Source of the DNA: Prorocentrum cordatum
Taxonomy: Eukaryota
Direction: 5' to 3'
Length of the DNA stretch: 64,000 nucleotides
Assembly: GCA_963575745.1 (NCBI GenBank)
Contig: CAUYUJ010000003.1
Span: 558,001 to 622,000 of the forward strand
Shown: positions 3,361 through 46,500 of the stretch, piece after piece
Layout of the letters: each line of letters opens with the position of its first letter
How positions within the stretch are numbered: position 1 is the stretch's first letter
Made by a program: the position numbers and the translations under genes
The notes under the pieces: generated by a model
What the model saw: only the letters and a program-made list of their open reading frames with translations
Databases searched by the model: none
What the model was told of the DNA's origin: nothing

Positions 3361-3816
3361 CTGGGGATGTTGCCGACGACTCGCTCTAAGAAGCAGAGCT
3401 TTCGCTGGAGAGATCCTCAGAAAATGAACTGTTGAGATCGGACGTTGGACATCCAACATGGCGCGGGGGAGCCTTTCGCTTGAGACGTCCTCCCACCCAC
3501 AATGCAAGCCATAGCAACTTTGGCTCTAGCGCCCTGAAGGGTCAGGAGGCAGCGCTTGTACTGGCACCGAGGGCTGGTCGTGGCCTGCGACCAGGCTTCG
3601 GGCCCCGCCGAGCCTGGGCCGGCCAGGGCCTCCATCGCCGAAGCGCTGGGCTTCGCCGAGTCGATGGCCCCGCAATCGCCTCCAGCTGAGCACCCAGACC
3701 CCCTCGAGTAATGAGAAAGTCATGACGGGAGGTTTATCCCCAATTTCGCCATCTGGGGGCCCTTGCCGGGACTCGGGACCGTCAAAAAACTACCCGGGAT
3801 GAAAAACCGGTCCCAG

Positions 3817-16257: not shown

Positions 16258-17012
16258 TCTAAAACCTGCATCGCCGATGCGAGGGCGTCGTCGTCGTTGC
16301 CGGCGGACGCGATCAACGCGGGCGCCATCGTTGGCCTCGCCGTCGCCATCGCCGCCATCGCCGCCATCATCGCCACTTGGATAATCGCGTCTACCGACGT
16401 CGGCGTCGCCATGATACCTCGCCCGCCCAAGTCGTCGGCCTCGCCACGATACCGATCCAGCGGTCCGCGCCACCGCTGCCGCGTGGATCGGGCCAAACTA
16501 GCGGGCCACTGCGCACGCGAGCGCGCGCGGCCGTAGAGATGCACCAGCCAACGCCATGCACTCATCGCAATCGCCGCCGCATGGGTTCTCCACGCCAAAT
16601 CGCAGGTGGGCGGGCGCGGGTCAGCACGAACACGGGAGGTGGTCACGCGCGAGGGACTGACAATGCATCTGCCCCCCACCCCCGGGATTATCCACCCCCC
16701 TTTGCGCGCAGCAATTTACATGTAATTCTCGCCCATCGCCCACCCTCAAAATTGAATCATGCCACCCCAGGCCAACCGGCATCGACCCCCCCCCCCCATC
16801 CTCTGCAACAAATGCTATGCGCGCGCTCTCGTTTATCAAAATCACCATGCCCCAAAGACCCCTTGCAAAACGTATGGCGAAATCCACGCGCGCGTGCCGT
16901 CGCGCGCGCATGTCGAAGTCAGTCAAAAACAGCGGGTTCCGCGCGGATTGCAAAACAAGGTATCCAACACACACGCGCATAAAAAACATAGGGTGTCGCA
17001 GTGCTGTTATAT

Positions 17013-18331: not shown

Positions 18332-20220
18332 TGTGTGTGTGTGTGTGTGTGTGCGTGTGCGTGTGCGTGTGCGTGTGCGTGTGTGTGTGTGTGTGGTGCG
18401 TGTGTGTGCGTGCGGGGGGGGGGGGGGGGGGGGGCGGGGGGGGGGTTTCCCGCCCGCCCAGGCCTGTAAAAATATTGGAAGAGGAATATGTGTAGATATA
18501 TACATATATATAAACATACATACATACATACAAACAAACATACATATATGTATATACATAGAAATCATGCGCACGCGCTCTTGCGAATCCATTAGAAACC
18601 ATCGATTGCTCAACATGTTCATGAGATGCGACCGAACGGGCCCTGCGCGAGCACGTCGGAATCGTTCGACCGCCCTTGCCCACGCGCTGTCGCGAGAACG
18701 AATTTTGCAGCGAGATAAAACGAAGTGCACGCGCGCGCGTCGGCGCGCGCGCAAGTCGAGATCCTTGAAACAAGCCGTAGGATTCGCAAGGATTTCAAAA
18801 TCGAGTGCCCCGAAGCCATATGAAAACATATGGCTTCGAAACATCAGTTTTCACATGCGCTCGAATTCTTGCGAGCCCTTGAGAAACCATGGTTGGTTCA
18901 ACATTTTCATGAAATTATGCCAAACGGGCCTCTCGCGAGGCGCGCCCGAATCTGCCGAGCGCCCTCGGGCGCGCGCGGGGGGGGGGGAGGGGCGAGAGCC
19001 GTGTGAATAATGCCACGCAGCCCACTCTCGCGCGTCGGCCGCGCGCGCGCGTCGAACTCCCCCCCTCGAAACCGCCGTCGCCGACGCGAGGGCGCCGTCG
19101 TCGTCGCCGGCGCGATCGGCATCGGCGCCGTCGCTGGCCGCGCCGTCGTCGTTGTCAACATCGCCGCCAGCGTCGCTGCTATCATCGTCGCGTCGGGGGC
19201 GTCGACAGCTTCAAGTTGAACATAGGTGAATTGCACCGCGTGGATTGCCCCGCGTAGAAGCAGCGCCTGTATTGCGCGGTTTTGTCGTTCGCGCGCGCGG
19301 TGCTCACTTTGGACTCGCAACATAAACGCTCCATTCTAAAAGATAGACCCTCCGGACTCGACGGCACCCCTTCGCGAATTGCGTTTCATGCGTATTCTGC
19401 GCACTCGCCAACTCCAACTATAAAATAACACCGCCCCAACTAACCCAGCACCCCCCCCGCCTTTCGCGCGGAATTATTACGCGCGCGCACCCGCTGATCA
19501 AAATTCATCAGTTTTCAAAAATCCCTGGCAACAGATGGGGCGAAGCGCACGCGCGCGCGTCGCCGCGCCCGCGCGCCGAAATCTTGCAAAAACATGTGTC
19601 CCCATGAAGAATTCATATTCGGGCGCCGCGACACGCGTGGGAATGTAAAATTTCGCAGCGAGAAATTCCACACCAACATTAAAGCTTCCGCCCGTGCTTT
19701 TGCGGATTGTTGTTTGGAATAACATGATGCGTTGTTGCGACGCTTGTTTTCCTTAAAATTCCAATGACATGCGACCGACCGGGCTTCTCGCGCGCGCGCG
19801 TCGAGATCGTCCGATCGCCCTCGCGCGCGCGTTGTCGTGGAAATCCCCCGCGACAAACGGGGCGAAGCGCACGCGCGCGCGCCGTCGCGCGCGCGCCCAA
19901 AACCTTCAAAAACCTTGAGATGCGCAAGGAATTCACAATCGACTGCCCCGAACACACACGAAAACGCACGGCTTTGCAACATCAGCTGTCAACCAAAGAA
20001 AACCCACGCACGCGATCCTGCAGTCTTTCCGGCCCGGCAAAAGTCGTCTAGGGCAGCAGGTTAAAACGTGTTTATTCAACTCGGCCGCGCGGGCCTCTGG
20101 CGCAGCACCGCGATAATCTGTTCCGCTCTATTTAGATAGGCGATCTAAATACTTCCGATCTATTTGGACCTCTACGATCTAAATAAACATTTCCAGTTTT
20201 CGGATCTGAATATATAGGTC
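16258..20220 (+). repeat. Same ~1.25-kb repeat family, interrupted by a ~1.55-kb TA/TG-microsatellite-rich insert (17007-18560)
   Basis: The marker occurs at ~16261 and ~19068. The spacing equals one unit plus the insert. Confidence 0.75.
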
Positions 20221-21044: not shown

Positions 21045-21542
21045 ACCTGTCTCTCTTCGGAGCCAGGCCAAACCGGCATCCCAGCGTCCAGCGCCCCTTC
21101 TCCTCCTCCTCCTCCTCCTCCTCCTCCTCCTCCTCCTCCTCCTCCTCCTCCTCCTCATCCAGCTGCCCCAGTGCCCCTCCTTCTCGTCGCCCCCTGCCGC
21201 CTCCCCCTCCTTTTCTTCGCCCTCGTCCCCGGCCCCGCGTTCGCCCTCGCGCTCGTCGTCGTCCTCCTCCTCCTCCCCCTGCTCGCCCCCCCCCCCCCGC
21301 CGCCGCGGAGCGCGCGCGCGCGCCGTGGTGGTGGGGGGGGGGGGGGGCGGCGCGGCGGCGGCGACGGCGACGGCGACGACGGCAGCGGCGACGGCGACGG
21401 CGACGGCGGCGACCGCGAAGGCGGCGGCGGCGGCGGGGGCAACGACGGCGACGACGAAAACGACGACGACGACGACGACGAACGCATGCGACAATGACGA
21501 CGACGACGACGACGACGACGACGAGGCAACTCGCCAGGGCAA

Positions 21543-21783
21543 TGTTGACGGAGGGTCCGCCTCTTCTGTTTTGATATCTGTCTTATCTTCCGAGTGGACT
21601 TTGCCTGAATCAACAGCTGCGATGTCGAACGAATGAATGCAACGAGGTAGATGAGGGATGTATGTTCTCAGGTCTATGCCGCAGTGGTCACGCTGCCAGT
21701 CCTCGAAGCGGCGCTTCTTGGCACGGCGTGCCTCTTCCTCGCCCTTGCGAGGCCCACGATCCCCCTTCTTACCAGTCGTGGTG

Positions 21784-21816
<33 letters not shown>

Positions 21817-22343
21817 TATATATGCAAAGGTTACCAGTGTGGCCAGTGAGTCTAAAGCGAGCGGAGCTCGCGCGCTAGCTCGGCTGGCTTGCCCGCCAGG
21901 CCTTGAGCCTTGAGCCAACATAGGCACGGATGGCAAGCGCGAGCGTTACTTACCGCATGCCGAGCAACTACTATATTATACAGAGCCTCCAGAGAGGCCC
22001 CAAACATAGTTAAAGCGCAGTTACCTTCATAGTGCACTTTGTGCACGTCTCCGAGAGCTTGCGCCGCAGCGGTTGCTCTCTGTCTCTCCCTGCGGCGGTT
22101 GACGACGCGCAGCTGTTGGCACGAGGCCTCCAGCACTCGGAATCAGAGAGCGGGCGGTCCAGAGTCTAGGAACACCCCCTATATAAATAAACTATACAAC
22201 GCGGTCCGGTATAAATCGGACATACAAGTCGGGCATTGTGCAACAAGTGCTCTGCGACATGCCATTTCTCTCTTCTCTGATGCTACTCTGCAGCGCGCGA
22301 AGTAGACGGGGGTCCAAAGTCGGGATCCCACGGGTCCTTCACA
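21543..22343 (-). repeat. 3' LTR of the Gypsy element (801 bp)
   Basis: Direct repeat of 33154-33933. It contains a (TACA)n(TA)n expansion at ~21785-21822 that is absent from the other LTR, and is preceded on minus by a G-rich PPT-like stretch GCGGGGACGGGCG. Confidence 0.95.
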
Positions 22344-22986
22344 ACGCCCGTCCCCGCGTCGTTTCATGACCACGCCTGCGCACTACGGACAGCAAAAGGG
22401 CAGTCAGCTGCTGCGGAGAGGTTCGCCCGGCGTGCCCGCCAAGAGCTCGCTGCAATCCGGCGCGCCCGCCGGGAGCTCAACGGGCCCCGGCGCGCCCGCC
22501 AGGAACTCTCTGCTACCCGGCGCGCCCGCCAGAAGCTTGCTGGAACGGGCGCGCCCGCCAGGCCCAGGCTCGCTCAGCGCAGCCAGCGGTAGTTGGTCTG
22601 CGCGAGGTCCATAAGCGCAGGCCCGGCGTCTGCAGGAGCGTCGTCCCAGCGAAAGTAGACACGCCCATCCACGCACTGGTTGACCATGGTCCCGCTCCGG
22701 CCATGGATCTGCGCGCGCGTCCGCGTCTCGCCGTCTGGCACTGACAGCAGCAGCGCTTCGATTGGAACCTACCTATCGGCACTGACCGGGCTGTGGAACC
22801 CCAAATCAGACCGCTTGCCTGTAGCCGCGTCTGCCACGACGTATGCGCGAGCATCGCCCTCTCGTCGGAGAACCTCCACGATCTGGTACAAATGATCATG
22901 GTGTTTCGTCTTATCCCGGCTCTGCTGAGAAGCTGGCCTCGCAATCAGAATAGTCCCCCACTCTTAAGAAATCTCCTCTGCCGTGT

Positions 22987-23800
22987 TCACGGAGTTGAAG
23001 CTCTCGTTGGCGGGGGCGAACTATATCGCGCTGCTGCAAGGCGAACTTGCGAACGTTCTGCACGTGTTCCACCAACTTCTTCACGCAGTCGGTGATGGGA
23101 ATCTGCTTCACAAATGCCGGCGTGGACAAGGTCGACCCCAAAAGCATCCTCGGCTTCATGCCTGCGATGATTTCGTAAGGGGGTGCACTGGGCGTTGTAG
23201 ATTTTCGCACTCGTGAGGGCAGACCGCTGGGAGATTGGTGCAACCGTATCCCAGTCTCTTCGTTCCCTCATGAATGCTCGTGCCAACGTGTTGTACTCCC
23301 TGTGTGGCCTCTCCACAGCAGACTGAGATTTTGCGTGAAAAGATGTTCCCAGACTCTGCTCGATGCCAAATGTCTTTGCCAAGTCCTTAACGATTGAATG
23401 GACGAAAGCTTGCCCCTGGCCGCTGCTGATTATGACCGGTATCCCGGCCAAGTCCATGATCACCCGCTCCGCCAATGTTCTGGCGGCCGTCTCGCTGGTG
23501 TCGTCCTGCGCAGGAATTGCCCAGTACCAACCAATGAAATTGCACACAGCCGTGCACAAATACAGGTGGCCTGTCGCTGTCAGAGGGTTCTGCGGCCCAA
23601 CGTAATCGATGGTCAGGAAGATCGTTGTCGCGAGATCGTCGGGGGCCAGATACCAAAGGCGAATTCTTATTCACCCGGCACGCCCAACAATTCCGAACGA
23701 CAGCGTTCACGTCACTCGACATATGCTGCCACCAGAGACCGCTGTCCAATATCATTGATAATGTTAGGTCCCCGTATCTGCGTGCCCCAGTGATCGCGCA
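22987..23800 (-). pseudogene. Gypsy integrase (HHCC zinc finger and DDE core, frameshifted)
   Basis: LGHADTGT..LWWQHMSSDVNAVVRNCWAC; core YWAIPAQDDTSETAARTL..GIPVIISSGQGQAF..FGIEQSLGTSFHAKSQSAVERPHRE. Confidence 0.9.
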
Positions 23801-25620
23801 GTGATCCGCAAGACAAACATATCGTCACAAAGACAGTCGACGCTCCGCCCCCTGAAATTCCACGGCGCGCCAAGCTCCCAGTGGAACAACAATGTGCCAC
23901 TCGTGGGTCCCAGAAGGCATATGGAACGCCAACCCTTGGAGCAATCCCCCGTAAACCGACACAGCCCAAGAACGCCGCGAACTTGATGAGGGCCCTTCAG
24001 ATCCAAGCCACTCCTCTTCGACAACTGGCGGAGTGCATTCTCGTCGATGTCGTTCGGCTCGCCGGTGATGTTTACATAGTCGATGCCCCCGCTGGCGCTC
24101 TGGCCGGGGCCCAGAAACAGCGTGGCGCCGTAGAGGCTGTAAACGTCGAGGTGCGATGTCGCGCACGTCGTTGCTGCCGCGCCACCAACCTCATACTTCT
24201 CCAACGTCAGGTTTTCGTCGGCGCCCCAGCAGAGGGCCACGCGAAAGCTGACGTCGCCCCACGTGGCCCCGCCAGTAGGGGGCACTCGGCATCGCCTGGG
24301 CCTTCGGGCCACGACCGCATCCAGCAGAGTAAGACAAGCATGCGGCTGAAGAGATTCAAGCTCGTCTTGTGAGAGCGCCCGCGCATCAGCACACAACGAA
24401 GCCTTAACGCGGACCTCACCCATCAAGGTGTTGTCACCGATCGGGTGCCACAGCGGCAGGGTGGACCCATCCGAGCCCTCGCCTTCGACCAGCCCGGCCA
24501 GAAAGAATAGGGGCAAAGCCCGTGCCCTCGCGTCTGGCCCGCTTTTGCACGTGGTCAACATTTTGCCCCTGTCACCCGCGAGCGCTGTCAAGGCTCCGCT
24601 GAATCCGACGATCCGCAAAGACGACAGCACTGGAAACCCCAGCCTCTCGAGCGCCTCCCGGTGATCACCGAAAACTTCGCCGTCCTCGCAGGTATACTCG
24701 ACGACCGCGTTGGCATTCCGAAAGACAACGCGCTGGCCCGGCTCGAAAATCACGATGCGTCATTCGCCTTGCAGCCAAGCGTCGCCTACATGATACTCGC
24801 CAGCGGTGCCGGATTCCAACTCCCACATCAAGAGACCGGTGCACTTGCAGGCGGACACGTCGAGCTGCTTGATGTCCCTGTACGCGGTGACGGCCCTGCT
24901 TGACTTCTGGTCCGCCCAATTGTCTCCTGACCAGAAATATCGCATAGCCAGGTTCAACAATTTCCCCTAGGTCTCCGATGGCTCCAGAAGGACTCCGGCC
25001 CGGTAACCGAAAAGGCGGCCAGACCGCAAACCGTCGCGCGCGTCGGCGGACTCGGTGAGGGCCTCGGCGTACTTCTCCACCTCGTCGCGCAAATCGTATA
25101 AGATCTCATCGCGACTCGCCCGTAGCCGCCCTGTCGAACCACCCGCGCAGGTAAGGATCTCGGGGTGCAACAGCTCCTGCTCGCCGACTGGGTGTCCAAG
25201 GCAACGGCGACGAGCAAGTCCAGGCTCTTCGCGCACCGCAATGGCGCCCCAACAATGGACGTCCCCGGGGGCAAATGTCACGAAATCGGGGCGCCGCGTC
25301 GCGAGAGAGCTCGCGCAGTCGACGTCCCAGACCTCGAACTCGTTCCGTGCGCCCCCGTGGTGCCCCGTAGGCTTCGCGATCCCAGGGCCGAACCTGCCGA
25401 GTCCACTACCTTCGCGCGTAGCCGCATAAGCGGTGAAAAAAAATCCGGCTGCTCTGCCTTTCCCCGAGATCTCCCGGCGGTGTTCCCCGTAAGCAATAAA
25501 ACGCATCGTCTGCTTTACTACGCCGCCGCGAATGTCGAAAACAGGATCTCGAAAATGAACGGCGTAGAACTCGCTGCCGTCCCGCGCGTACATATATGTA
25601 ACCTTCGTCGCCGGGATCTT
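23764..25620 (-). pseudogene. Unknown ~600-aa cargo region in pol, possibly tandem ASCH/PUA-like domains
   Basis: ORFs 24967-26226, 24760-24960 and 23764-24753 share one frame and are separated by single stops. The sequence is complex, not low-complexity. ASCH-reminiscent segments: HFRDPVFDIRGGVVKQTMR; FEPGQRVVF..FGDHREALERLGFPVL; GGIDYVNIT..VRGVLGLCRF..HWELGAPWNF. Confidence 0.35.
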
Positions 25621-26480: not shown

Positions 26481-26639
26481 CACGAAGTCCCGGTCGCGCC
26501 GCCTGAGCTGCGCAACCGCGCGGCCCATGTGCCCCCCCATGCGCCCGGGGATGTCGGAGAGCCGCGTCTCCGTTGTAGTCGGTGAGCTCGGCGTAGACGG
26601 CGCTGGCACGTCGCGACCGCCAGGGCGGCCAGGCGCTTC

Positions 26640-26900
26640 CGCGGCAAGCTGTTGCACCTCGCCTGGCCCGGCGCGCCCGCCAGGCAGTCGAGGGGGCGCG
26701 TCGGCGGCCGGCCGCGCTCCGCCCATCCCGGCGCGCCCGCCGGGCGGTCGGAGGGGCGCCGCGGCGGCGGCCTGAACTCCGCCCACCCCGGCGTGCCCGC
26801 CAGGCGGTCGGAGGGGCGCTGCGGTAGCGGGCTGCGCCTCGCCCATCCCGGCGTGCCCACCAGGAGGTCGAGGGGGCGCTTGGTGGCCAGCTGGCGCCTG
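26640..26900 (+). repeat. 60-bp tandem repeat x~4 in the RNase H-DNMT linker (APLRPPGGxAG units)
   Basis: ccggcg(c/t)gcccgccaggcggtcggaggggcgc recurs every 60 nt. Confidence 0.85.
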
Positions 26901-27199: not shown

Positions 27200-28490
27200 A
27201 ACCCACGCGCGATTGCCATGGCGCCCTGCTGCCGGCATCGGCGAGGACGTTCGCTTCCCCAGCGATCCACGCACGCGGCGCGTTCGCAAGCGTGTCCTGC
27301 GCCTCGGCAACCCAAGCCATCAGCTTCTTGGTCGCTCGGTTCTTCAACGCGCACTCAGCGCGTTCTATGTTCTCGTGGTCGAAGAAAGTGAATGCAACGA
27401 ATCCCTCGGTCCACTTTGACGTCGCGGCGACGCCCTCCTTCCACGTTGCTCAAAAGCTGACCACCTCGTGGCCGCGCCCTCGAACGAACGAGCGACCACC
27501 CCGATAACTCGCGGCGCGCCGCCGGGCGAGTCACGCTGACACAGAACAGCGGCCCGCGCGACATCCCTTGCGTCCAAATGCAACTCGAATGGTCTGCCGC
27601 TCTCGTAGGGCCGCGCTGCTGGGCGTGACCAAAACGACCTGCTCGAGCAGCGTCTCGATTAACCGCGCTCTGGCTGCCTGGGCCTCCGCGTCCGCGGCGT
27701 AGCCCGTGGAATCTGCACCCTCTTTGCTTGCATTTCTCTGGGAACTCTCGCAGGTACTCTCGCAGGTACTGACAAAATGCAAGGTTAGAGATAATGTCGC
27801 TGCCATTCCGGCACTCAGGCCACGCCCGTAATTGGTCAACTTTGGCAGGGTCAACGCGACGACCGTTCTCACCAACAATAAAACCTATGACAAACGTCTC
27901 GGTGAATCCAAATCGACGCTTGTCCAGTCGGTATTGCATGCCGTTCTCTCGTGCTCGTGCGAAGAGTCGAAGCATCGACGAAATATGCCCCTCCAAAGTC
28001 CAATCGGAGACGCGCGTGTCGTCGAAGAAGACGTCTGCCAGCTTCTCGCTTGTAGGTTTGTACTCCGATCCGATTGTGCTCTCTTGGATGTGCTGGTAGA
28101 TGGCCGGCGCCTGCTTCGGCCCTAACTGAAGGCGGCAAAAGATGCACATGCCGCAATGGCGATGATTGTCTGCCCCAGAGCTGTCTCTGAGTCGTTTTCA
28201 ACGCCACTGTGCCCCCAAACGCAATCGAGAGTCGCGTGGTATCCCTTGCCCATGGCGCGCTGGAGCACCGACTCCGCGTCTGGAGCTGGCCAAAAGACGT
28301 CCTCTGCGGCCTTGTTGTAGCACGTGCGATCACCAATCATACGCCCAAGTAAAGAACCCAGCCGTTCAACCCTGAAAACTGGTGTCACCATAGGCGGCAT
28401 AGGGTCATCACGGGTCCGCTCGCAGAGCTTGCCGTCTTTGATGTGCTCCTCGATGTGGTGCGAAATGCGGGCCTCGTTGGACTTGGACAT
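27200..28490 (-). pseudogene. Gypsy reverse transcriptase and RNase H (frameshifted)
   Basis: RT: PVFRVE..GRMIGDRTCYN..WPAP, TLDCVWGHSGV, LQLGPKQAPAIYQ, VFFDD (YxDD), RRFGFTETFVIGFIVGENGRRVDPAKV..W-P. RNase H: LHLDARDVARAAVLCQ..ARSFEGAATRWSAFE, FFDHEN, WIAGEANVLADAGSR. Confidence 0.92.
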
Positions 28491-28892: not shown

Positions 28893-29660
28893 TTACTTCC
28901 AGCTCTTCGTCTCCATCCGTCGCAATCTGCACGCAAATCTTCCGGGCACGGGCGCCAATGTCGTCTTGCCATGAAATTTGTTCATTGCCATAATCGTCGC
29001 ACCAAGTTCCCCACTGAAACTGATAGGAAGGACCGGACAGTTCAACGCGTGAGCCTCGTCATCAATTCCTTCGCACCACAATTGCCCGTGCATGCCCTGC
29101 GCTTCCACCTCGGCCCCGTCAAGGGCGACGGCGACCCCCGCCCAACCGGTGTCCGACATGTCGATTGGCGGTAACGGCCTGGATGCACTCGTCGGCCCGG
29201 CGCGCCCGCCAGGCCCTGCGCGCCCGCTCGAAACGCGCGAACGCAAAGAAGCAATGGCCTCGCGTCGGCCAGACCGCTGCGGTGGAAAGACTCGGCCCAG
29301 GAAACGGCCGAACAGGTGCACGCAAGAACGGCGAATATCGCAGCCGAAGTCGGACTCGATACTCGGCATGCCGAAGATGAACGGGTCACCTAAGACAGAA
29401 AACTCGTTGAACGTGATGAGCAGATCCAGCATGTCTGGCTTCCCGCCCTCCGTCTTGCGCCCCTTGACCGTCGCCGCCCAGTCGCTCTCGCACTCCGTGA
29501 CCTTCACTATGTCGTTCGTGAAGCCACCGATTTCCTCCTTGTCGATCGCCCGGCGCTCGCGGAACGAATGGCCCCCGCTCTGGCGCTGCAACCAAGACAG
29601 ATCTTTGTCGATGGCGCCCAAATCGCTGCCGCTATCCACAAGAGCGCGGACCTCTATAAT
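28893..29660 (-). pseudogene. Gypsy aspartic protease
   Basis: ALVDSGSDLGAID catalytic motif, with downstream FIFGMPSI (ILG-x-D/P-like). Confidence 0.8.
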
Positions 29661-29887
29661 GGCCCGAGGTGGACCGGAATCCGGCGCGGAGCCGGAAGAA
29701 GAGACTCTCCAAAGGGATACCCGTCACCTCCATCACTGAGCCCGTCTCCAGCAGCCTCTCGGCGACGGCGCGTAAGATCGCAGCTGGCGTCGGAATCACA
29801 ACCGCTGCAGTTGGCCGCGAACCAGTTCCCACCATTGCAATGCTGATCTCACTCACAAGTCGTACGCCGAAAAGCGCGTAGACGCAA

Positions 29888-30510
29888 CTAGGACATGCAA
29901 TGCCGGCTCGCGCCGGCCCGCCAATCGGAGTCGCAATGGATATTCTCTCCGATCACAGCAGCGCGTTTGGCGACTTGACTAACCCATTCGTTTCTCGGGC
30001 GACCAACCTTCTTCACGAATCTCTCCGCTGCCAAAACGTGCGTTCCAGGGATGAAAGCGCGCTTCTTCAATTCGTCCCCCTCCAACGCACGCACCACTCA
30101 TCTCTTCCATATCATAGCAGTTGTTGTTGCAGTAGTCTGCGTGAAACGTGTACCCGGCCTGCCTTCTCCAACGCTGTCTTGTTTGAAAGTCGCGAAATCA
30201 ATGATAATTTTATTCGTAAAATGACGCGCAAACGTCGGCAATAGAAGCCGTCGACTCGGCGAACGTCTGCTGCCCGCAGCCACGCGGAGCTCAGCCCATA
30301 CAAGAAACGGCTCATGATGACTGCTTCAAGGACTTCCACTTTCCGGGGAAGCGGCAGCTCCGTTCGCTTCCAGAAGATATTGAGCTTGCAGAACTCCCCC
30401 CAAGCGTGGCCGATCTTGCGGTGGCTCTCGCGACTCACATTCCCGTCGGGACGGATGTCGACTCCAAGGTGCTGCAAGGCTTCGCCTATAAGGATGGTGC
30501 CCCCAATTGG
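29888..30510 (-). mobile_element. 5'-truncated LINE (RTE/L2-like) RT thumb/3' fragment nested between gag and protease
   Basis: LQHLGVDIRPDG..IGHAWGEFCKLNIFW..RKVEVLEAVIMSRFLYG..RVDGFYCRRLRVILRI..SRLSN..QQLL, then KKVGRPRNEW. This is the typical C-terminus of a non-LTR RT. Confidence 0.8.
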
Positions 30511-30917
30511 AGTCTGTACTTGGCACACAACCACTGCGCACCCGCATGCCAATCAACTAACCCCAGCGCCTCCGCGTTGAGACTCCAAGCCGGTATCCGC
30601 GTAGAGGTTGGTCCGGTTGTCCATGATGAGCTCGTCCTCCCAGTCCGCCTGGATCGCCCCGTTGACGCGGGTGCTTGATCCAGCCACTGTACTGGTAGTG
30701 GTGGTAGCCGTGCTGGTAGACGTAGTAGCTGTAGAAGTAGAGGTAAAGAACGAGATGATGCTGTACATGATGAACACCAGCATGACGACAGCAACAAAAA
30801 CATGCAGAACAAGGTGGTGGCAACAAAGTGTGGCTCTCTCTCTCCCCCTGGGAGAACTGCAGCCACTGGTGCGACAAACGATCGTGCGGGCTCAGTCGCC
30901 GTTGGCTCAGTCACCGT

Positions 30918-31093
30918 GCTGCCGGGCAGCTCTGGTGGTCGTGCACATGGCTCTGTCGCCGGGCTGCCGGGCAGCTCTGGAAGTCGTGGACCTGGCTCTG
31001 TAGCCGGGCTGCCGGGCAGCTGCGGAGGTTGTGGACCTGGCTCTGTAACCGCGCTGCCGGGCAGCTGTGGAGGTCGTGGACCTGGCTCTGTAG
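30918..31093 (+). repeat. 45-bp tandem repeat x4 (encodes ATEPGPRPPQLPGSP-like units on minus)
   Basis: gctgccgggcagct..gg..gtcgtggacctggctctgt recurs every 45 nt. Confidence 0.9.
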
Positions 31094-31749
31094 CCATCTC
31101 GTTCAAACAGACCTCATCACAGAAAGAATGTATCAAAGATCCGGTCTGCTCCCGGTCCTTGTCATACTCTGGCGTGAAGATCTCTGGGTCGAACTCGCTG
31201 TCCTCGTAGTCCGAGTCGTGGGCGGCTGGGTAGTAGGTGCGCCACTGCTGCGCGCTGAGCACGCGCGCGCAAGACATCCGCCGGAGGCCACCTCCTGGAA
31301 GGCGCCTTTCGACGCCAACAGCACTGCGCATGGCCCCACCTCCGGTGGACGATGCCAGCCCCTGCTGAGACCACTGCCAAGCACGGTGCTGCTCGGGTGT
31401 CATCATGACTGGCACTGTCGGAGGCGCCGGTGGCGGAGCGCAGGCGCCTGCGGCCGGGGCCCGCCGCGCGGGCCACGACGGCGCCGCGTTGGCTGCAGCT
31501 GAAGATGCCGCTGGCCCCTGCGGCGGGGCCCGCGTCTCTGGCCAGGGCCCGGCCGGCGCGTAGCCTGCCCGAGCTGCTGCCGCCGCCGCCGCCTGCCCTG
31601 AGGGCTCCTGCTGTGGCTGCGCCTGCTGCTGTTGGCTCGGCGGCCCTGCTGGTTCTCCCGCCGGTGGCGGTTCCTGCTGCTGCCGGGGGTCTTGCCGCTG
31701 CCAAGGGCCCTGCTGTTGCCAGGGGTCCTCGCCGCCTTCGGCGCTGCAA

Positions 31750-33046
31750 GACTTCACCTGGCGCTGCGGCGGAGGCCGCCCGTGCTCCTCCTGGTGCCTC
31801 TGCGCGCGGTGTCGCGCCGAATGCTTTGCGCTGTCGCACCTGTACTTGCCGTAGACGAGGCGTCCGCACGCGCTGTTGGGCCCCGCTTTGGACTCGCTAG
31901 TGATCCGGGGGTCACTTCGTGCAAGGTCGTTCGGGCACTTCTTCGCGTCTGGGTGGTGGCAGCCACAGTCTGCGCACCGCGGTCCCGAGTTGCAGACCTG
32001 CGTCTTGGGCTTGGCTGGGCACTTTATGGGGCCTTTACCTCCGCGCTGTCCTGCCCCTCCTGCTCCGCCCCACGGCCGGCCATCTGGGCAGCGTCGGCCT
32101 GGTTCGACATGGCCGCGACGCGGTCCCTCTCCTGCTGGATGGCCGCAGACATGAAACCACCCTCGTCGGCAGGAACGGACGCAGTAGGGAAGGCTGGTGG
32201 TGCCTCCTGTGCTCCGCGGCTGTCGCAGGCCCCCTGGTTGCTGCTCTGCGCCTCGCCGCGCATGGCGTTCGCGCGCCCTCCAGGGCTCCGCCGGTGCGTC
32301 TCGATGCACAGATTCACCAACCCCATCGCGTGGCCCAGGTTCCGCACCTGCTGGCATCCAGTCTGCTGGACGATGAAGGCGTCGACAGACGGCGTCGCAC
32401 GGCGCTCCAGGAACTCATTCGCGTGCCAGCGCTCGTTGACAGCCAGGGGCGCCCCGACCGCTGCCTGCAATTCCGGACTCGTGCCCTCGGCGGCCATGGC
32501 GTGCATGATCGCGTCTGCCTGCGGGATCAAGCCGAACTTGTGCATCGCGCGCCGGCCCCGGCGCCACCTCTGGACCAAGTTCTCTGCCTCTTGCACGGAG
32601 TCGTGGTGCATCTTTGCCTCGGCGTAGATCCCCCCTGCGATCCGACCTTCCTAGCGTCGCTGAGGCGCAGCTCCGTCTGGACCGCGTGAATGAGGGCCTG
32701 GCACAGCTGTGCCCCCACCTGGTCGCGGTTCCCCTGGGGAACCCTGTTCTGAATCGCCCGCTGCAACTGCTGGAAAAGCAGCGCCCCGGCGGCCAGCGCC
32801 AGCTCGATGATGCCCCTTGCGTCGCCGGTGGCGCACGCCTGTAGCTGTCGAAAGTCGGCCTCCGAAGGGCCCGTCACACCGGCGTCGCCGAGGTCGATCT
32901 CGAACTGGATAACCTCCAAGAGCAACTGCTTCTGACTCGTAGCGGTAATCCTGGTGATCTCCCGCTTGTTGCCACTCCACACTCTGTGCCAAACGTTGGG
33001 CGCTGTCCGCCTGCTGCGTGACAGCCCACGTCATAGCCTGCGCCAT
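31750..33046 (-). pseudogene. gag-like ORF (frameshifted) with Cys/His-rich nucleocapsid-like region
   Basis: Overlapping ORFs 32651-33046, 32527-32982, 32024-32611 and 30486-32357 follow directly after the PBS. Motifs CADCGCHHPDAKKC and CGRLVYGKYRCDSAKHSARH are followed by a Pro/Gln/Ala-rich linker. Confidence 0.65.
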
Positions 33047-33133: not shown

Positions 33134-33151
33134 TTTCCGGAGCAGCCCCCA
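33134..33151 (-). promoter_or_regulatory. Primer-binding site, probably tRNA-Pro
   Basis: TGGGGGCTGCTCCGGAAA begins 2 nt after the 5' LTR and resembles the known tRNA-Pro PBS TGGGGGCTCGTCCGGGAT. Confidence 0.75.
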
Positions 33152-33153
33152 GT

Positions 33154-33933
33154 TGTTGACGGAGGGTCCGTCTCTTTTGTTTTGGTAGATGTCTTATCAT
33201 TCGATTGGATTTCGTCTGGATCAACAGCTGTGATGTCGAACCAATGAATGCAACGAGGTGGATGAGGGATGTTTGTTCTCACGTCTATACGCCGCAGTGG
33301 TCACACTGCCAGTCCTCGAAGCGGCGCTTCTTGGCACGGCGTGCCTCTGCCTCGTCCTTGCGAGGCCCACGACATCCCTTCTTACGAGTCGTGGTTAAAA
33401 GGTATATGTACAAAGGTTGCCAGTGTGGCCAGCGAGTTTAAAGCGAGCGGAGCTCGCGCGGTAGCTCGGCCGGTGTGCCCGCCAGCCTTGAGCCTTGAGC
33501 CAACATTGGTGCGGATGGCAAACGTGAGCGTTACGTAACGTATGCCGTGCAATTACTATATTATACAGAGCCTCCAGAGAGGCCCCCAAAATAATTGAAA
33601 CGCATTTACCTTCATACTGCACTTTGTGAACGTCTCTGAGAGCTTGTGTCGCAACGGTTGCTCTCTGTCTCTCCCTGCGGCGGCTAAAGACGCACAAGGC
33701 CTCCAGCTGTTGGCGCGAGGCCTCCAGCACTCGGAATCAGAGAGCGGGCGGTCCAAAGTCTAGGAAAAATCCGTATATAAACTGTACAATGCGGTCCGGT
33801 ACAAATATGATATACAAGTCGGGCGTTGTACAACAAGTGCTCTGCGACAGGCCACGTCTCTCTCTTCTGATGCTACTCTGCAGCGTGTCATGTAGACGGG
33901 TGTCCAAAGTCCGGATTCCAGGGGTCCTTCACA
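33154..33933 (-). repeat. 5' LTR of the Gypsy element (780 bp)
   Basis: Aligns by eye along its full length with 21543-22343 (e.g. tgttgacggagggtccg..., ...gggtccttcaca). It has TG/CA termini and is followed by the PBS on minus. Confidence 0.95.
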
Positions 33934-34029
33934 GCAAAGTTGCTGGACGGGCTGGTGTGGATGCGCGGGGCTTGAAGAGGTCGTTGCGGGCTCAGACGGC
34001 ATGCAACAATCCGCCGCCGCGCTTGTGCG

Positions 34030-34860
34030 GCATTGGTTTGTTCACTGAATGTGGTTTAGGTCGCGGGTGGGTCGCGGGCTCTCCACCCCCACCTGGAAGG
34101 AATGCAAAAGCAGCCCGCCGCAGGCGCCGACAAAAATTCGTTTGTACACTGAACGTGGTTTGGGTCGCGGGTGGGCCGCGGGTTCTCCACCGGGAACGGA
34201 TGCAAAAGATGCCCGCCGCAGGCGCCGAAAAATATGGTTTGTACACTGAACGTGGTCGCGGGTGGGCCGCGGGCTCTCCATCTGAAACGAATGCAAAAGA
34301 TGCCCGCCGCAGGCGCCGAAAAATGTGGTTTGTACCCTGAACGTGGTTTGGGTCGCGAGTTGGTCACGGGGTGGGTCGCGGGCTCTCCATCTGAAACGAA
34401 ATCAAAAGATGCCCGCCGCAGGCGCCGAAAAATGTGGTTTGTACCCTGAACGTGGTTTGGGTCGCGAGTTGGTCATGGGGTGGGTCGCGGGCTCTCCACC
34501 TGGAAGGACTGCAAAAAACGCCCGCCGCAGGCGCCCGCCGCAGGCGCCGACGCGGTTTGGGTCGCGGGAGGGTCGCGGGTGGGTCGCGGGGTAGGTCGCG
34601 GTGGGTCGGGGTGGTCGCGGGTGGGTCGCGGGGTGGGTCGCGGGTGGGTCGCGGGTGGGTCGCGGGTGGGTCGCGGGGGTGGGGTCGCGGGTGGGTCGCG
34701 GGGTGGGTCGCGGGGTGGGTCGCGGGGTGGGTCGCGGGGTGGGTCGCGGGGTGGGTCGCGGGGTGGGTCGCGGGTGGGTCGCGGGTGGGTCGCGGGTGGG
34801 TCGCGGGGTGGGTCGCGGGGTGGGTCGCGGGTGGGTCGCGGGGCGGGTCGCGGGTGGGAC
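34030..34860 (+). repeat. ~100-120-bp tandem units x5 grading into an 11/12-bp GGGTCGCGG(G)GT minisatellite
   Basis: gtac(a/c)ctgaacgtgg..gcccgccgcaggcgccgaaaaat is repeated; pure gggtcgcgggt covers 34560-34857. Confidence 0.9.
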
Positions 34861-38769: not shown

Positions 38770-41553
38770 TCGGAAAAAAATCAAGATTTCTCAGAACACC
38801 AGTTCGGCCTTTTCGGACACCCATGTTGGGCCTCTTGGAAAATCAACCGAGCCGATCTAAATAGATAGGGTTTTTGCTTACAGCAAAAACCTATCTCAAT
38901 ATATCGGCTCTACAAAACATGTTCTTTTTAGACCACCAAGATCTAATTAGATAGGCGGATCTAGATAGATCGGCGCCGCTCTAAATAGATAAGAAGTCTA
39001 AAAACATCGGAACAGATTCTCATGGCATGTCGAAATCGCGCAAACGATCCTGCGCGCGCTCTGGGGGGGCAGGGGCAATCCGCGTCGAATAATATCGCGC
39101 GGGCCGGTCTCGCGCGTCGGCCGCGCGCGCGTCGAACTCCTTCCGGAACCTTCATCGCCGACGCGAGGGCGCCGTCGTCGTCCTCGGGGCGATCGGAATC
39201 GGCGCCGTTGCTGGCCGCAACTTCGCCGTTTTCGCCGTCGTCACAAGCGTCGCCGCCATCGTCGCCGCGTCTACCGCTGTCGACGTCGAAGCGGCACCGC
39301 GCCCGCCCAAGCGGTCGTCTCGCGCTGCAGCGCCCGCCGGGAAGCGCCGGGAAATCGGCGCCACTGCGGTCGCGCCGGTCGCGCCAGACTAGCTGGCCGC
39401 AGCGCGCGCGAGCAAGCGCAGCCTAGCGCGGCCGCAGAGATGCACCAGCCAACGCCAACCGCCCATCGCAATCGCCGCCGCGTGTGTTTTGCAGAACAAG
39501 TTGCGGGCGGGCGAGCGGGGCGATTGCGCGAGCAGCGGAGTTGGCAACTGCAAGTTCCGCAAATGCATTCCCTGCACTCAAGGAACATTGGCATCTCCCC
39601 CCCCGCCCCCTCCTGGATTCAACCGCCCCCATTTTCGCGTTGCAGTTGACGCGCGATTCCGCCCCATCGCCCACCCCAAGCATGAGCGCGCGCCGCCCCA
39701 GCCAGGCCGGCAACGCCCCCCCCCCCCCCCCCCCTCACTTTTTGCAACAGAAAACTACGCGCACGCACCCGCTAATCAAAACTCATCAGTTGCCCAGAAT
39801 CCCTCGCAGCAGATGGGACGAAGCGCGCGCGCGTCGTCGCGCGCGCATGCCGGAACCCTCGAAAAACACATTCGGCTTCATGGGGATTCCAACGTCGAGC
39901 GCCCACGCACTTGATAAAACATGATATCGCAACATCAGCGCTCAAAACCAATCGCGCCCGGGCTCTTGCAAAACCCCTAGAAAACAAGGAGGTTCAACTT
40001 GCTACCAAGCAGGCCCCTCGCGCGCGCACGTCGGAATCGCTCGAACGCCTTCTCGCGCGCGCTGTCGCCAGAAGCCCCTGCAAACACATGGGCGAAGCGC
40101 GCGCGCGCGTCGTCGCGGGCGCGCGCCGAAACCATTCGAAAACATCCGGTGTTGCATAGATTTCAACGACGAGCGCCCCGAAAACATAAAACACATGGTT
40201 CTGCAACAACAATGCTCAAAAATGCCCGCGCTCGCGCTCCAGCGAATTCTCGAGAACACAGAATTGCTGTTCAGCGAAATTCAGCCAGGCGGGCCCCTCG
40301 CGCCGCGCGTCGAAATCGCTCGATCGATCTCGCGCGCCCTGGGGGGGGGGCGCGACCCGCGTCGAATAATGCCGCGCGGGCCGCTCTCGCGCCTCGGCCG
40401 CGCGCGCGCGTCGAACTCCCCTCCGAAACCTTCGTCGCCGGCGCGGGGGCGCCGCCGTCGTCGCCGGCGCGGTCGGCGTCGGCGCCGTCGCTGGCCTTGC
40501 CGTCGCCGTTGTTTCCGTCGTCGCCAACATCGCCGCCATCACCATCGCGTCTACCGCCGTCGACGATGCCACTGTACCGCGCCCGCCCACGTCGCCGACT
40601 CGCACTGAAGTGCCCGCTGGGAACTGCCCGGCTGCCAGCGCCACCGCGGCCGCGCCGGTCGCGCCAAACTATCCGCCCGCTGCGAGCGCGAGCGCGCGCG
40701 GTCCAGCGCGGCCGCAGAGATGCACCAGCCAACGCCAAGCACCCATCGCAATCGCCGCTGCATGTGTTCTGCAAACCAGGTCGCGGGTGCGTGGGCGACC
40801 CATTGCGAACTGCGAGCAGAAATCGATTGCTCTACATAAACTTGCATTTCTACAGAAATTCTACGATCTCTGCCACCCCCGCCCCCCCCGCGTCAACGGC
40901 CCCCCTTCTCGCGTTGCAACTCGCGCGTGGTTCTGCCCCATCGTTCATCGCAGATATGAGCGCGCGCCATCCCAGGCCCGCCCGCATCGACCCCGGCCCC
41001 CCCCCCCCCCTCATCCTCTGCAACAAACCTCAACAAGTTTCGAGTGCCCATTGCGGCAGATTGGGCGAAGTGCACGCACGCGCGTCGTCGCGCGCGCAGA
41101 AATCCTTCGAGGACGTCTGGCTTCCTGAGGGAGTCAAAACCGAGTGGCGTCACGAAAATATGCACAACGAAAAACATAAGGGTTCACAACTTGCATGTTC
41201 AAAAAAAGCTCGCGCTCGGGCGCTTGAGAATTCGTGCGAACATTTTATTTTTCATACCCAAAAACCATAAGATGCTACCGAATGGGCCTCTCGCGCGCGC
41301 AGGTCAAAATCATTCGAGCTTGCGCGCGTGCTGGCGCAAGAACCCCGATGTGAAAGATGAGGCGACGTGCACGCGCGCGCGTCGTCGCGCGCGCATGACG
41401 GAATCTCATAGAAAACCGAGGTTCCGCAAGGGTTTCAAAATCGAGTGCCCCCGATGCAGATAAGGCGCTAGTTATGCAACATCACTACTGAAAACAGCCT
41501 GCACCGGGCCTCTCGCGCCGCATGCCGAAATCATTCAAACGACCTTGCGCGCT

Positions 41554-41597
<44 letters not shown>

Positions 41598-42100
41598 CGT
41601 GACCCGTTTCAAATGGCACCGTGCGGGCCACTCTCGCGCTTCGGCCGCGCGCGCATGTCGAACTCCACCCAAAACCTTCATCGCCGACGCGAGGGCGCCG
41701 ACATCGTCGTCGGCGTGATCAGCGGTCGACGTCGCTGGTCGCGCCGTCGTATAAGTCACCATCGTCACCGACATCGCTACATTCATCACCGCGTCTACCT
41801 TAGACGACGTTGCCATTGTACCGCGCGCGTCCAAGTCGCCGACTCGCACTGAAGTGCCCGCCTAGCGGCCAGCGCCACCGCGGCCGCGCCGGTCGCGCCA
41901 AACTATCTGGCCGCTGCGAGCGCGAACGCGCGCGGGCTAGCGCGGCCGCAGAGATGCACCAGCCAATCCCAAGCACTTATCGCAATCGCCGCCGCATGAG
42001 TTTTGCAAACCAAGTCGCGGGTGGGTGGGTGGGATGATTGCGCGAGCAGTGGAGTGGGCAACCCACCGCGAACTGCGAACAGAAATCTGTTGCACTACAT
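38770..42100 (+). repeat. Tandem array of ~1.25-kb GCGCGCGC-rich units (about 2.5 copies)
   Basis: The marker aaaccttc(a/g)tcgccg(a/g)cgcg(a/g)gggcgccg occurs at ~39147, ~40425 and ~41671. The ggccgcagagatgcaccagccaa block is repeated. Confidence 0.85.
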
Positions 42101-43597: not shown

Positions 43598-46500
43598 CTG
43601 GTACGCCTCCCTCAGGGTCGACAGCTGCTCCCTCAGCATCTCGTTCTCCATGGAGGGCTCTCCGCCGTGGGGCTGGGCCGATGTGAGCGCCTGCGGCCAG
43701 ACGCGCCTCCTCCTCCTCCTCCTCCTTCTCCGACTCCTCCTGCTCCTCCTCCTCCTCTTCCTCCTCCTGCTCCTCCTGCTCCTCCTCCTCCTCCTCCTCC
43801 TCCTCCTCCTCCTCCTCCTCCTTCTCCTCCTCCTCCTCCCCCCCGCCATGCTCCTCATCTTCCTCCTCGCCATTCTCGCAATCCTCCCCTCAGAACCTTC
43901 TCCTCGCCAAGCTCCTCATCCTCCTCCCCCTGCTCCTCCCTCGCTCACCTCCTCTGGGCGCCCTTTTCGCTGCTCCTGGCGCCTGGCCGCTCCGTTGCCT
44001 CACCTGGGCCCCTCCTCAGTCCTGATTTCGTCTTCTCGCGGTGCCCTGAGGGCAGACATGAAGCACGAGGGCACGGAGTGCAAACGATGAGAAAGCTCGC
44101 AGGATGATGAGGAGGCGGCGGCGGGAAGGAAGGGCTGTGGATCGTCGTCGTCCTCCTCCTCCTCCTCCTCCTCCTCCTCCTCCTCCTCCTCCTCCTCCTC
44201 CTCCTCTGGGGAAGGGGCGGGCGAGGCCCTGGAGCTGCACCTCAACAGCAGCGGGGGCTGCTGGGCTGCGACCCACCCGAGATGCTGAGCCCTGGCAGGT
44301 CAGGCTAGTGAGTAGGCTCCGATAGCAGGGGACATGTCGACCCATATCTCGGGAGCGGTCAAGAGGGGGGTCTCCAAGAGGGGGGGATGCAAATCATGAC
44401 CGGCGGCATGTGCGCGGCCCAGCGGGGGGGCCAGGAACGTAATGAAATAAGAAGGGACGCCATGACATCTGGGGAAATTTCATGGCCCCCGCCATGATAT
44501 CAACCCCCGTCTAGACATCACCCCCCTCTTTCCCGCCCCCGAATGTCCCAGGCTTCGTGGGGCTTTCGAATGGGCCGGAAATTTGAGGCCCCACCCTGCG
44601 AATTACGATGGGGGGGCGTCCATCCTCCATAGGGGTGCGTCCGAATGGGCCCTTGGGGTGTATCTCAGTGTTTCCATTCTTTTCTGAGCGGCTTCATTTT
44701 TCGTCGAAAAGTCGGGACCTGGGGGAGAAACATCGCCTGCGATCCGAACCCCTGGCTGGCGCTCTGGCCAAGCACTCCGCAAACTCCGAGCCCGAATCAC
44801 GTGCACGCCGAGGACGAGTCGCCGAAGCGTGCTGGCCGATCAGGAGTGACCTGGGCAGACGTACCAGCTACCGACGGCCGTCGAGGGCGAGTCTTCCGGG
44901 CCTCTTGAGGCCCCTTGAGCGCCTCTTGTGCCTTTTTTCTCTTGAGTCCGAAAAATTGTACAGCCCGCAGGGAGCACGTCATCGCCTGTCGCCACCGTAG
45001 GTGCGCTTGCGGCAGGACGCGCCACCGTAGGTGCGCCTGCGGCAGGACGCGCACATCCCCAGCCCAGCGACGCCCCAACTGCTGTCCCCCCCCCGCCCTC
45101 AGTCCAACTCCTGGAGCGGTGCCGTGCTCACTTCGACATGTCGGCCTGGGGCAGGATGAACTGCAAGCCCAAGAAGGCGATAATGGGCCCCACGAGGACC
45201 GCCACGAGCGCGACCAGCTTGAAGATGGTGTCCACCGGGTCGAAAGCCTTGGCCGCATGCGCCGCTGTTGGCACGGCGGCCGCCGCCACCCCGAGCAGCG
45301 CAGCGTGCTGCACCGGAGGCAAGTCGGAGGGCGGCGCCCGAGGTGCTGCAGCGGGCGGGGGCACGAAGGTGGTCGCCACAAAGGCGCCCGCAGCCAGGAG
45401 GACAGCGACGGAGAGCAGCCTGGAGCGAGCGGCCACCATCGCGCTCGAATGTGCCGGAGGAGCTCGGTGAGCTTGCCGGGGCACGGGTGGAGCGAGCGGG
45501 TCCAGGCGTCAGCAAGGACGGCTTGAGCCAAAATGACTACGGAGCGCCTCTTGCGACTTCTTGGTGTCTCTTGAAGGCGTCTTTACAGTCTCTTGAGGGC
45601 CTCTTGGGGCCACTTTGAAGCCTCGGAAGCGCATCTCAGGCGAAAAAGCTGGAAAGGCAATATGTAACGGTTTTCCATCGGTTGTTGAAGGATTTCAGCT
45701 TCTTGGGCTCATCCCCGGGGGCGTTTTGAGAATATCTTGGGCACTCTTGGGAGCACGTTCGGCCGTTTTGTGAGCATCTGGGGCCGTATTGGAAAAGTCT
45801 TGGGCCGCCTCGGGGGCTCCCTGGACCGTCATGGAGGTTCTTTGGGCTCTCTGAGGCCATGTCCGAACGTTTTTTTGCAGTCTCGGAGGGGTCCAAGATC
45901 CCCGCCACCGACATGGGGATCTGCTGTCTGCCCTTAGGGCCCCCGGCCCTGGACACCCGGTATATGTACATAGTGAAATCGGTAGATACATACAAGCATA
46001 CATAACCTCCACCGTGCCCTCGAGGCACGAAATGGAATCCTCAGGTCATTTGCCGGATGCCGTAAACCTCAGTCCTTCATCCTGGGTGTCCTTGCAAGGG
46101 CCCAGAACGCAAATTGCGAAATCTTCTCGGGCGCGTCGCGTGGCCCCTGGGGCTTGGGGTGTCTTGTCGCGTTACTTTTTCGGGCCCGAAAGGGCCCCAA
46201 GATGAGCCCAGACGGCCCCAAGTGGCCGCCCAGACGGTCCAAGAGGGCCCAGAATCGCCGCACGACCGGTTGAATACGCCCAAGATGGCCCCAAGACAGC
46301 CCACATGCCTTCGAGGTGCCTCAAGAGAGCCCCAAGAGCCTTCTCAAGAGGGCCCTGAGAGGCCAAGATCATTAATTTTACTGTAGTTGTTCAATGTTGT
46401 TTCAGGTCACCCACTTTTCGAGCTTCCGATGCTCCAAGACGGGCCAAGAAGCCCCCAAGACCGCCTCAAGGCCCCCGAGAAGGCCCCCAGGCGGCCCAAG

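Follow-up and report, generated by a model that had tools for sequence, protein, structure and literature searches.

Both long terminal repeats (LTRs) of an old Gypsy-type retrotransposon hold, encoded in their DNA, a copy of the dinoflagellate spliced leader (SL; DinoSL, DCCGTAGCCATTTTGGCTCAAG) that is in decay, and the likeness to the leader is beyond chance. The element lies in the 64-kb stretch of DNA analysed here, referred to as the window. An SL relic within an LTR is apparently unreported; a search of the literature other than subscription journals and supplements found no paper describing a leader inside an LTR. From this arrangement it would seem that an RNA capped with the leader was at one time copied by the element into its repeat.

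A decaying spliced leader in both LTRs of a Gypsy element

The 5' LTR reads TCCGCACCAATGTTGGCTCAAG (33515->33494) and the 3' LTR TCCGTGCCTATGTTGGCTCAAG (21930->21909), both on the minus strand. Each 22-mer aligns with DinoSL without gaps and with 4 mismatches, and each is directly followed by GCTCAAGG (Table 1). The coordinates and counts that the first-pass annotation had given for these two 22-mers were correct on re-reading. Both are sense to the element, upstream of its frames and full length from SL position 1. With 18/22 positions identical in each LTR, and 19/22 in the majority of three copies described below, the motif has the high identity and the full length of a relict DinoSL. The stacked form of such relics, SL followed by CCATTTTGGCTCAAG, is absent at the LTR motif, where GCTCAAG alone stands behind the 22-mer; stacking is not obligatory for a first-generation relic.

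Table 1. Features of the element, of its leader-like motif and of a neighbouring encoded leader (positions in the window)
Feature	Position	Strand	Details
SL-like 22-mer, 5' LTR	33494..33515	-	18/22 to DinoSL; LTR position 419-440 of 780
SL-like 22-mer, 3' LTR	21909..21930	-	18/22 to DinoSL
Second GCTCAAG	33487..33493 (5' LTR); 21902-21908 (3' LTR)	-	directly behind the SL-like 22-mer; from sequence
AT-rich box TATAATATAG	33556..33565 (5' LTR); 21971-21980 (3' LTR)	-	from sequence
5' LTR	33154..33933	-	780 nt; starts TGTGAAGG, ends CCGTCAACA; direct-repeat blocks, alignment, blastn
3' LTR	21543..22343	-	801 nt; same TGTGAAGG/CCGTCAACA ends as 5' LTR
Target-site duplication TTGC, 4 bp	33934..33937 (upstream copy); 21539-21542 (downstream copy)	-	flanks ...aactttgc / ttgcc...
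Candidate primer-binding site (PBS) TGGGGGCTGCTCCGG	33137..33151	-	TGG..., starts 2 nt past 5' LTR; from sequence
Purine-rich tract GGGGACGGGCG, candidate polypurine tract (PPT)	22345..22355	-	1 nt ahead of 3' LTR; from sequence
Aspartic-protease-like frame	28893..29723	-	LVDSGS at ~29636; motif scan
Reverse-transcriptase (RT) frame	27355..28197	-	FFDD at ~28029; motif scan and relatives
RNase H part	27365-27658	-	RT_RNaseH_2 E 3.4e-7; RT_RNaseH E 2.3e-6
Integrase	22987..23824	-	zinc-binding part 23387-23824, core 22987-23670; different frames
Encoded leader TCCGTAGTCATTTTGGCTCAAG	45543->45522	-	21/22; 83 nt (SL end to ATG) upstream of 103-codon ORF
103-codon ORF	45439->45128	-	Ala-rich N-terminus, hydrophobic C-terminal stretch

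How often would a match of this quality be met by chance? Under a model that uses the base composition of the window, identity to DinoSL of at least 18/22 has a probability of ~8e-8 per position, which amounts to ~0.005 expected matches on each strand of the 64-kb window and to 6e-5 on one strand of a 780-nt LTR. In 300 dinucleotide-preserving shuffles of the window the mean was 0.013 matches, and any match at all occurred in 4/300 shuffles, against four observed in the window. The four comprise the two LTR copies, which count as one event and not as two, the encoded leader at 45543->45522, and a leader-like site at 3508-3529 (+; 18/22). At 19/22 and above, which is where the inferred ancestor lies, the 300 shuffles yielded no match. 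A further leader-like site, 8473-8494 (-), reaches 17/22, a level at which 0.107 matches are expected per shuffle; it keeps TCCG and TTGGCTCAAG, has AT-rich stretches in the 50 nt upstream, and is unrelated to the LTR by blastn.

The encoded leader at 45543->45522 and the ORF behind it (45128-45543 together) look like a retrogene relic; the 103-aa product has no Pfam family at E<=0.1. Given its 21/22 match, this genome makes true SL relics, one of them 12 kb from the LTR motif, and the relic also identifies the window as DNA of a dinoflagellate.

The carrier of the motif is a Gypsy-type LTR retrotransposon, as had been proposed from the first reading. Its LTRs have TG..CA ends, as Ty3/Gypsy terminal repeats do, are flanked by the TTGC duplication, and are 88.7% identical, 87 out of 769 aligned pairs being mismatched (JC distance 0.123); a (TATG)n microsatellite insert is present in the 3' LTR and absent from the 5' LTR. 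The window holds no third copy, blastn of the LTR matching these two only. The minus-strand order of protease, RT, RNase H and integrase is likewise that of Ty3/Gypsy. The protease-like frame has no Pfam match, and the RT frame has three relatives at E<=1e-3, two of them with PF00078. Integrase is recognised by Integrase_H2C2 (23387-23824, E 3.9e-6) and by rve (22987-23670, E 1.6e-7), the latter at 31.9 bits, which is 0.7 bit below the 32.6-bit cut-off. Pfam found nothing at E<=0.1 in the 642-aa frame at 30486-32414. An intact gag-pol frame is absent, the domains being in different short frames, and between RNase H and integrase lie tandem repeats and ~3.5 kb. The broken frames, the internal tandem repeats and the divergence of the LTRs indicate an old, dead copy of 12.4 kb. 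Its tandem repeats (22397-22562, 26593-26879 and 30903-31127; units of 30, 60 and 45 nt) lie in the putative gag frame and in the stretch that separates RNase H from integrase, and the 30- and 60-nt units have a CCGGCGCGCCCGCC core in common.

Outside the element there are 237 ORFs with a length of 110 aa or more, and Pfam was applied to 135 of them, taken from the part up to 48.6 kb without the satellite at 34-38.8 kb; these contained no other retroelement, and so the window offers no second LTR family to compare. Distant relatives of the RT, at 20-30% identity, come from 48 loci in genome contigs and 15 in IMG/VR. These 63 loci (396,654 bases) contain no SL-like sequence at <=5 mismatches; being non-dinoflagellate, they serve as a negative control only.

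Upstream of the motif, the AT-rich box TATAATATAG occupies -50..-41 from the first T of the SL-like sequence in both LTRs, inside a 33-nt block that is identical between them. The first-pass annotation had placed a TATA-like box there in both LTRs, and the position stands (33556-33565; 21971-21980); its significance, taken alone, does not. The 5' LTR contains four clusters of 10-mers with at least 9 A/T (17/771 windows), so that by our estimate one would lie 20-60 nt upstream of any point by chance in about 1 case in 5, and on its own the box is weak evidence. Dinoflagellate promoters are poorly known.

An LTR frame runs behind the motif at 33288-33437 (-) and 21543-21830 (-), reading ...RGPRKDEAEARRAKKRRFEDWQCDHCG; it has no in-frame ATG, and a GTAAGA donor-like site stands just upstream of it. 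We take this frame to be reminiscent of the start of a RanBP2-type zinc finger. The two LTR frames gave no Pfam match at E<=0.001, and when the 96-aa frame of the 3' LTR was compared with longer proteins only, none of 57 candidates scored.

Further copies and the decay of the motif

Are the two LTRs in the window the only witnesses of the motif? Contigs from a DNA run, X1, reach a summed depth of ~10-38 over the LTR against ~3.5 on the single-copy side, which implies that a few more copies exist. Two X1 contigs cover the motif. One is 3' LTR-like, including the extra G behind 33484, and the other is a third sequence. Both (2/2) read A at 33511 and A at 33507, which are minus-strand T at SL positions 5 and 9; C at 33510 is found only in the 3' LTR-like contig, and the other keeps A at SL position 6. 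The differences of the third copy are those among the rows listed, low-depth ones possibly adding to them, and as this copy could be an allele or a segmental duplicate, the comparison concerns one family with ~three copies. Of the other runs, X3 yielded nothing, X4 has one contig of 31 nt over the motif with 4 differences, too short for interpretation, and in X2 coverage is confined to the satellite next to the LTR.

By majority, the three copies read TCCGTACCTATGTTGGCTCAAG, which matches DinoSL at 19/22 and restores TCCGTA. A family consensus lacking the 5' half of the SL, which the first reading had asked about, is therefore not what we see. The private change of each LTR (SL position 5 or 6) goes away from DinoSL, and the majority is closer to DinoSL than either LTR, indicating that the copies decayed from a more SL-like ancestor. 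The divergence of the motif between the LTRs, 3/22, matches that of the LTR as a whole, 87/769, and drift since insertion has thus been neutral. The LTR copies share non-canonical bases at SL positions 7, 9 and 12 (C7, T9, G12), whereas the neighbouring retrogene relic keeps G7, C9 and T12; these shared bases indicate that the motif was inherited in cis and not renewed in each cycle. The first-pass annotation had offered two explanations, a leader mimic encoded in cis and a one-time capture fixed in the LTR. Inheritance in cis is borne out by the shared bases, and the two explanations fit them equally well.

The surroundings of the element are repetitive. A satellite of GGGTCGCGGG-type units, with periods of 109 nt and 11 nt, adjoins the 5' LTR at 33934-34860. 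Its summed contig depth runs to thousands in both X1 and X2, while the LTR is at ~10-38 in X1 and absent from X2; at 33934 the contigs of both runs stop matching and continue into one and the same unrelated sequence. At 39138-42062 there are about three tandem units of ~1280 bp, 73-84% alike. Across the retrotransposon from them, at a distance of 20-23 kb, the stretches 16323-16745 and 19061-19194 partly resemble these units, whose frames contain no Pfam family.

Origin of the leader in the LTR

How did a spliced leader come to lie inside an LTR? The answer that we tentatively prefer, and that may well be right, is that the 22-mer is an SL copy captured by a Ty3/Gypsy LTR via reverse-transcribed SL-capped RNA and inherited in cis from then on. 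It would have joined the LTR of a Ty3/Gypsy family before the present copies were made. The likely route is reverse transcription of an SL-capped RNA, and the simplest candidate, we infer, is the genomic RNA of the element itself, after trans-splicing. As is established for LTR reverse transcription, the 5' end of the RNA has its counterpart in the LTR at the U3/R junction and nowhere else. Minus-strand strong-stop DNA ends in the complement of that 5' end and, after the first transfer, is joined to U3; a leader present on the RNA would in this way be deposited at the U3/R junction and copied into both LTRs. From the replication mechanism alone, the mechanistically most natural reading is that the motif marks the U3/R border. 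A motif that begins with SL position 1, is complete and has the sense orientation is what would be expected of a copied RNA 5' end, and a border at its start, position 419 of 780, would divide the LTR plausibly into 418 nt of U3 and 362 nt of R-U5. Strong-stop DNA whose 3' end is the complement of a 22-nt leader, left unpaired, should be hard to extend after the transfer, so that capture must be rare; once suffices. After a single capture the leader would have been inherited in cis, and in the dead 12.4-kb copy it would have drifted with the rest of the LTR.

The capture model does not account for the extra GCTCAAG; it could stem from a slipped strand transfer, which is one possibility. In retrogene relics the internal AG is the normal site of re-splicing, as described in the accessible part of one report (PMC3229502). 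The G-to-C change at SL position 7, common to the LTR copies, removes this AG, and its loss could be due to selection or to drift. Beyond a past capture, dinoflagellate LTR retrotransposons might use an LTR-encoded SL as the first 22 nt of R, a proposition that we hold to be distinctly doubtful. RNA with a leader 5' end would then either be started at the leader from the AT-rich promoter of the LTR or be trans-spliced at the AG of the encoded leader, and the encoded copy in the 3' LTR would present strong-stop DNA with a perfectly matching landing site. The loss of the internal AG through C7, together with a GCTCAAG possibly left by slipped transfer, would fit such a use of the leader in R.

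A capture from the element's own RNA has to be weighed against an origin in a host mRNA. The SL relic and the sequence behind it might have been retroposed into the LTR of an active ancestor, or might have entered via template switching from a co-packaged SL-mRNA; later transposition would have spread them to both LTRs, and the position of the motif would be unrelated to the transcription start of the element. Several observations speak for this rather unlikely origin. Relict SLs of retroposed mRNAs are common in dinoflagellates, to judge from the accessible parts of three reports (PMC3229502, PMC7245778, PMC6050394), and one retrogene relic sits 12 kb away in the window. In the metagenome contig L002, described below, TCCGTAGCTATGTTGGCTCAAGGCTCAAGG precedes an open frame of 346 codons to which the element bears no relation. 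Within the LTR, a frame reading ...RRAKKRRFEDWQCDHCG passes through the segment behind the motif, and the A-rich run CCAAAACAAAAGAGA near the 3' end could be a poly(A) remnant. However, the few LTRs of an active element are a tiny target in a very large genome, and the LTR would have had to stay functional after the insertion. The segment behind the motif has neither a Pfam match (E<=0.001) nor a protein match (0/57, longer proteins), and both of these are weak negatives.

It is very improbable that the LTR carries or has captured, in this motif, a fragment of an SL RNA gene, the donor of the leader; the element would then own a leader gene. The exon-like 22-mer is indeed full length, and a G follows the second GCTCAAG; GC donors are used in some dinoflagellate introns. 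Yet none of the marks of such a gene, a GT donor, AUUUUGG and a short gene in arrays, is found at the LTR motif: neither AAG is followed by GT, GC standing there in both LTRs, the exon stretch reads AUGUUGG in place of AUUUUGG, and a tandem array is lacking. Folding of the 120 nt from the motif is no better than that of shuffles (z -0.88 and -0.31), and Rfam gave 0 matches at threshold in the window, though it may have no model of dinoflagellate SL RNA. Finally, one could suppose that repeat-rich, GC-rich sequence resembles the leader by chance, an idea to which we give hardly any credence. The whole window was searched after the fact, and simple repeats of GCTCAAG are present in unrelated contigs of bacteria and phages (L001, L003, L123-L132). 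But matches of at least 18/22 arose in only 4/300 shuffles, against the 4 observed, and in 0/300 at 19/22 or better; the TCCGTA 5' half is recovered in the majority of the copies, and true SL relics are demonstrably present in the genome.

Encoded leaders elsewhere and comparison with known systems

Scanning metagenomes with the LTR 21-mer gave three loci (L001, L002 and L003). L001 and L003 are (GCTCAAG)n in GC-rich contigs without a leader. L002, a contig of 1570 nt with 47% GC, has TCCGTAGCTATGTTGGCTCAAGGCTCAAGG ahead of its 346-codon open frame: at 1209-1239 (-) the leader variant TCCGTAGCTATGTTGGCTCAAG is followed by GCTCAAGG and then by GT, and two copies of a ~45-nt motif stand upstream of it. 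With the LTR motif it has T9, G12 and the 7-nt repeat in common, nearly the same 30-mer; as the search pattern forced G12 and the repeat, the independent agreements are the 5' part of the leader and T9 only. L002 showed no other likeness to the LTR or the element, and its 346-codon frame has nothing in Pfam at E<=0.1. Thus, a sequence like the LTR motif can head an ordinary gene, or arise at an ordinary retrogene.

In IMG/VR, a scan with the canonical 21-mer found 119 loci (L004-L122), mostly in giant-virus bins, with 143 distinct leader sites, 130 of which are without mismatch. GCTCAAG stands behind the encoded leader at none of the 143 sites, and GT at three. At the 132 sites with 70 nt of upstream sequence, a AAAAATTGA-type motif is found at -50..-41, before an exact encoded ACCGTAGCCATTTTGGCTCAAG, and 94% of them have A throughout -49..-46. 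Encoded leaders in these bins number up to 7 per 12 kb, some in 50-nt tandem units (L027). Genomes that parasitise dinoflagellates therefore encode the host leader in cis, behind an upstream motif of their own. Our literature search found no paper on these cassettes of promoter and leader in giant-virus bins. Scans of IMG/VR with the 18-mer TTGGCTCAAGGCTCAAGG gave 10 loci (L123-L132), all of them coding sequence without an SL upstream, and with the L002-variant 21-mer 0 loci; the integrase domain PF00665 was found in neither of the two giant-virus records searched.

What would a leader in an LTR mean? Fixed in Gypsy LTRs, it is physical evidence that an RNA end capped with the SL took part in the replication of such an element. 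Should the motif mark the U3/R border, it would show how LTR elements manage in a host where almost every mRNA is trans-spliced, and would provide a sequence tag for the transcription starts of LTR elements where promoters are hardly known. If the leader does serve as the start of R, it would tie the reverse transcription of LTR elements to the recycling of mRNAs that fills these genomes with retrogenes. The mediator of dinoflagellate mRNA retroposition is given as unknown, with LTR elements suspected, in the accessible text of two papers (PMC6050394, PMC12014239).

The closest known case is that of the relict leaders at retroposed dinoflagellate genes, explained by the model of Slamovits and Keeling, as far as the accessible parts of the reports go (PMC3229502, PMC7245778, PMC6050394, 10.1101/783902). 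As these sources describe them, retrogene relics are like the LTR motif in being a DNA-encoded 22-nt leader, in sense and upstream of coding sequence, that decays with age; reverse transcription of a trans-spliced RNA is the explanation given for them, and would be the same for the LTR motif. On the other hand, the LTR motif lies in both LTRs of a retrotransposon whereas a retrogene relic, in the same accounts, heads a host retrogene, and behind the LTR motif comes the 7-nt GCTCAAG repeat whereas the usual retrogene relic is truncated after nucleotide 7. Retroposition and retrotransposition are treated as independent processes in what is accessible of one of these reports (10.1101/783902).

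Cer1, a Gypsy/Ty3 element of C. elegans, meets the problem of trans-splicing from the other side. In the accessible part of its description, the 8-kb gag-pol RNA of Cer1 is not trans-spliced and SL1 is found only on a 2.4-kb spliced mRNA (PMC3315495). Like the element studied here, Cer1 is Gypsy-type, lives in a host with a 22-nt trans-spliced leader, and faces a conflict between trans-splicing and a full-length genomic RNA; unlike it, Cer1 is not reported, in that same part, to encode a leader in its LTR (PMC3315495). In Symbiodinium, copia elements activated by heat have been described in a paper that makes no mention of the leader. An association of retroelements with the spliced leader is also known from SLACS, CZAR and NeSL-1, non-LTR retrotransposons that insert site-specifically into SL RNA genes, and there, unlike here, the leader is not within a terminal repeat.

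The giant-virus cassettes resemble the LTR in having the host leader in cis behind an AT-rich motif at -50..-41. The LTR motif does not belong to their type: the spacing is the same, and the upstream motif, the exactness of the leader and the gene behind it differ. The viral motif is of the AAAAATTGA type and that of the LTR is TATAATATAG; the viral leader is exact (130/143) and that of the LTR matches at 18-19/22; and a gene directly follows the viral leader, whereas in the element 340 nt of LTR and the PBS precede any coding frame. The polymerases would differ as well, viral for the cassettes and presumably host Pol II for the LTR. The equal spacing of the box and the viral motif is a lead and not evidence; by analogy, the LTR arrangement may work like a giant-virus cassette. 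If the encoded leader does form the start of R, the element would be the retrotransposon counterpart of the promoter and DinoSL cassettes of giant viruses, in the same hosts.
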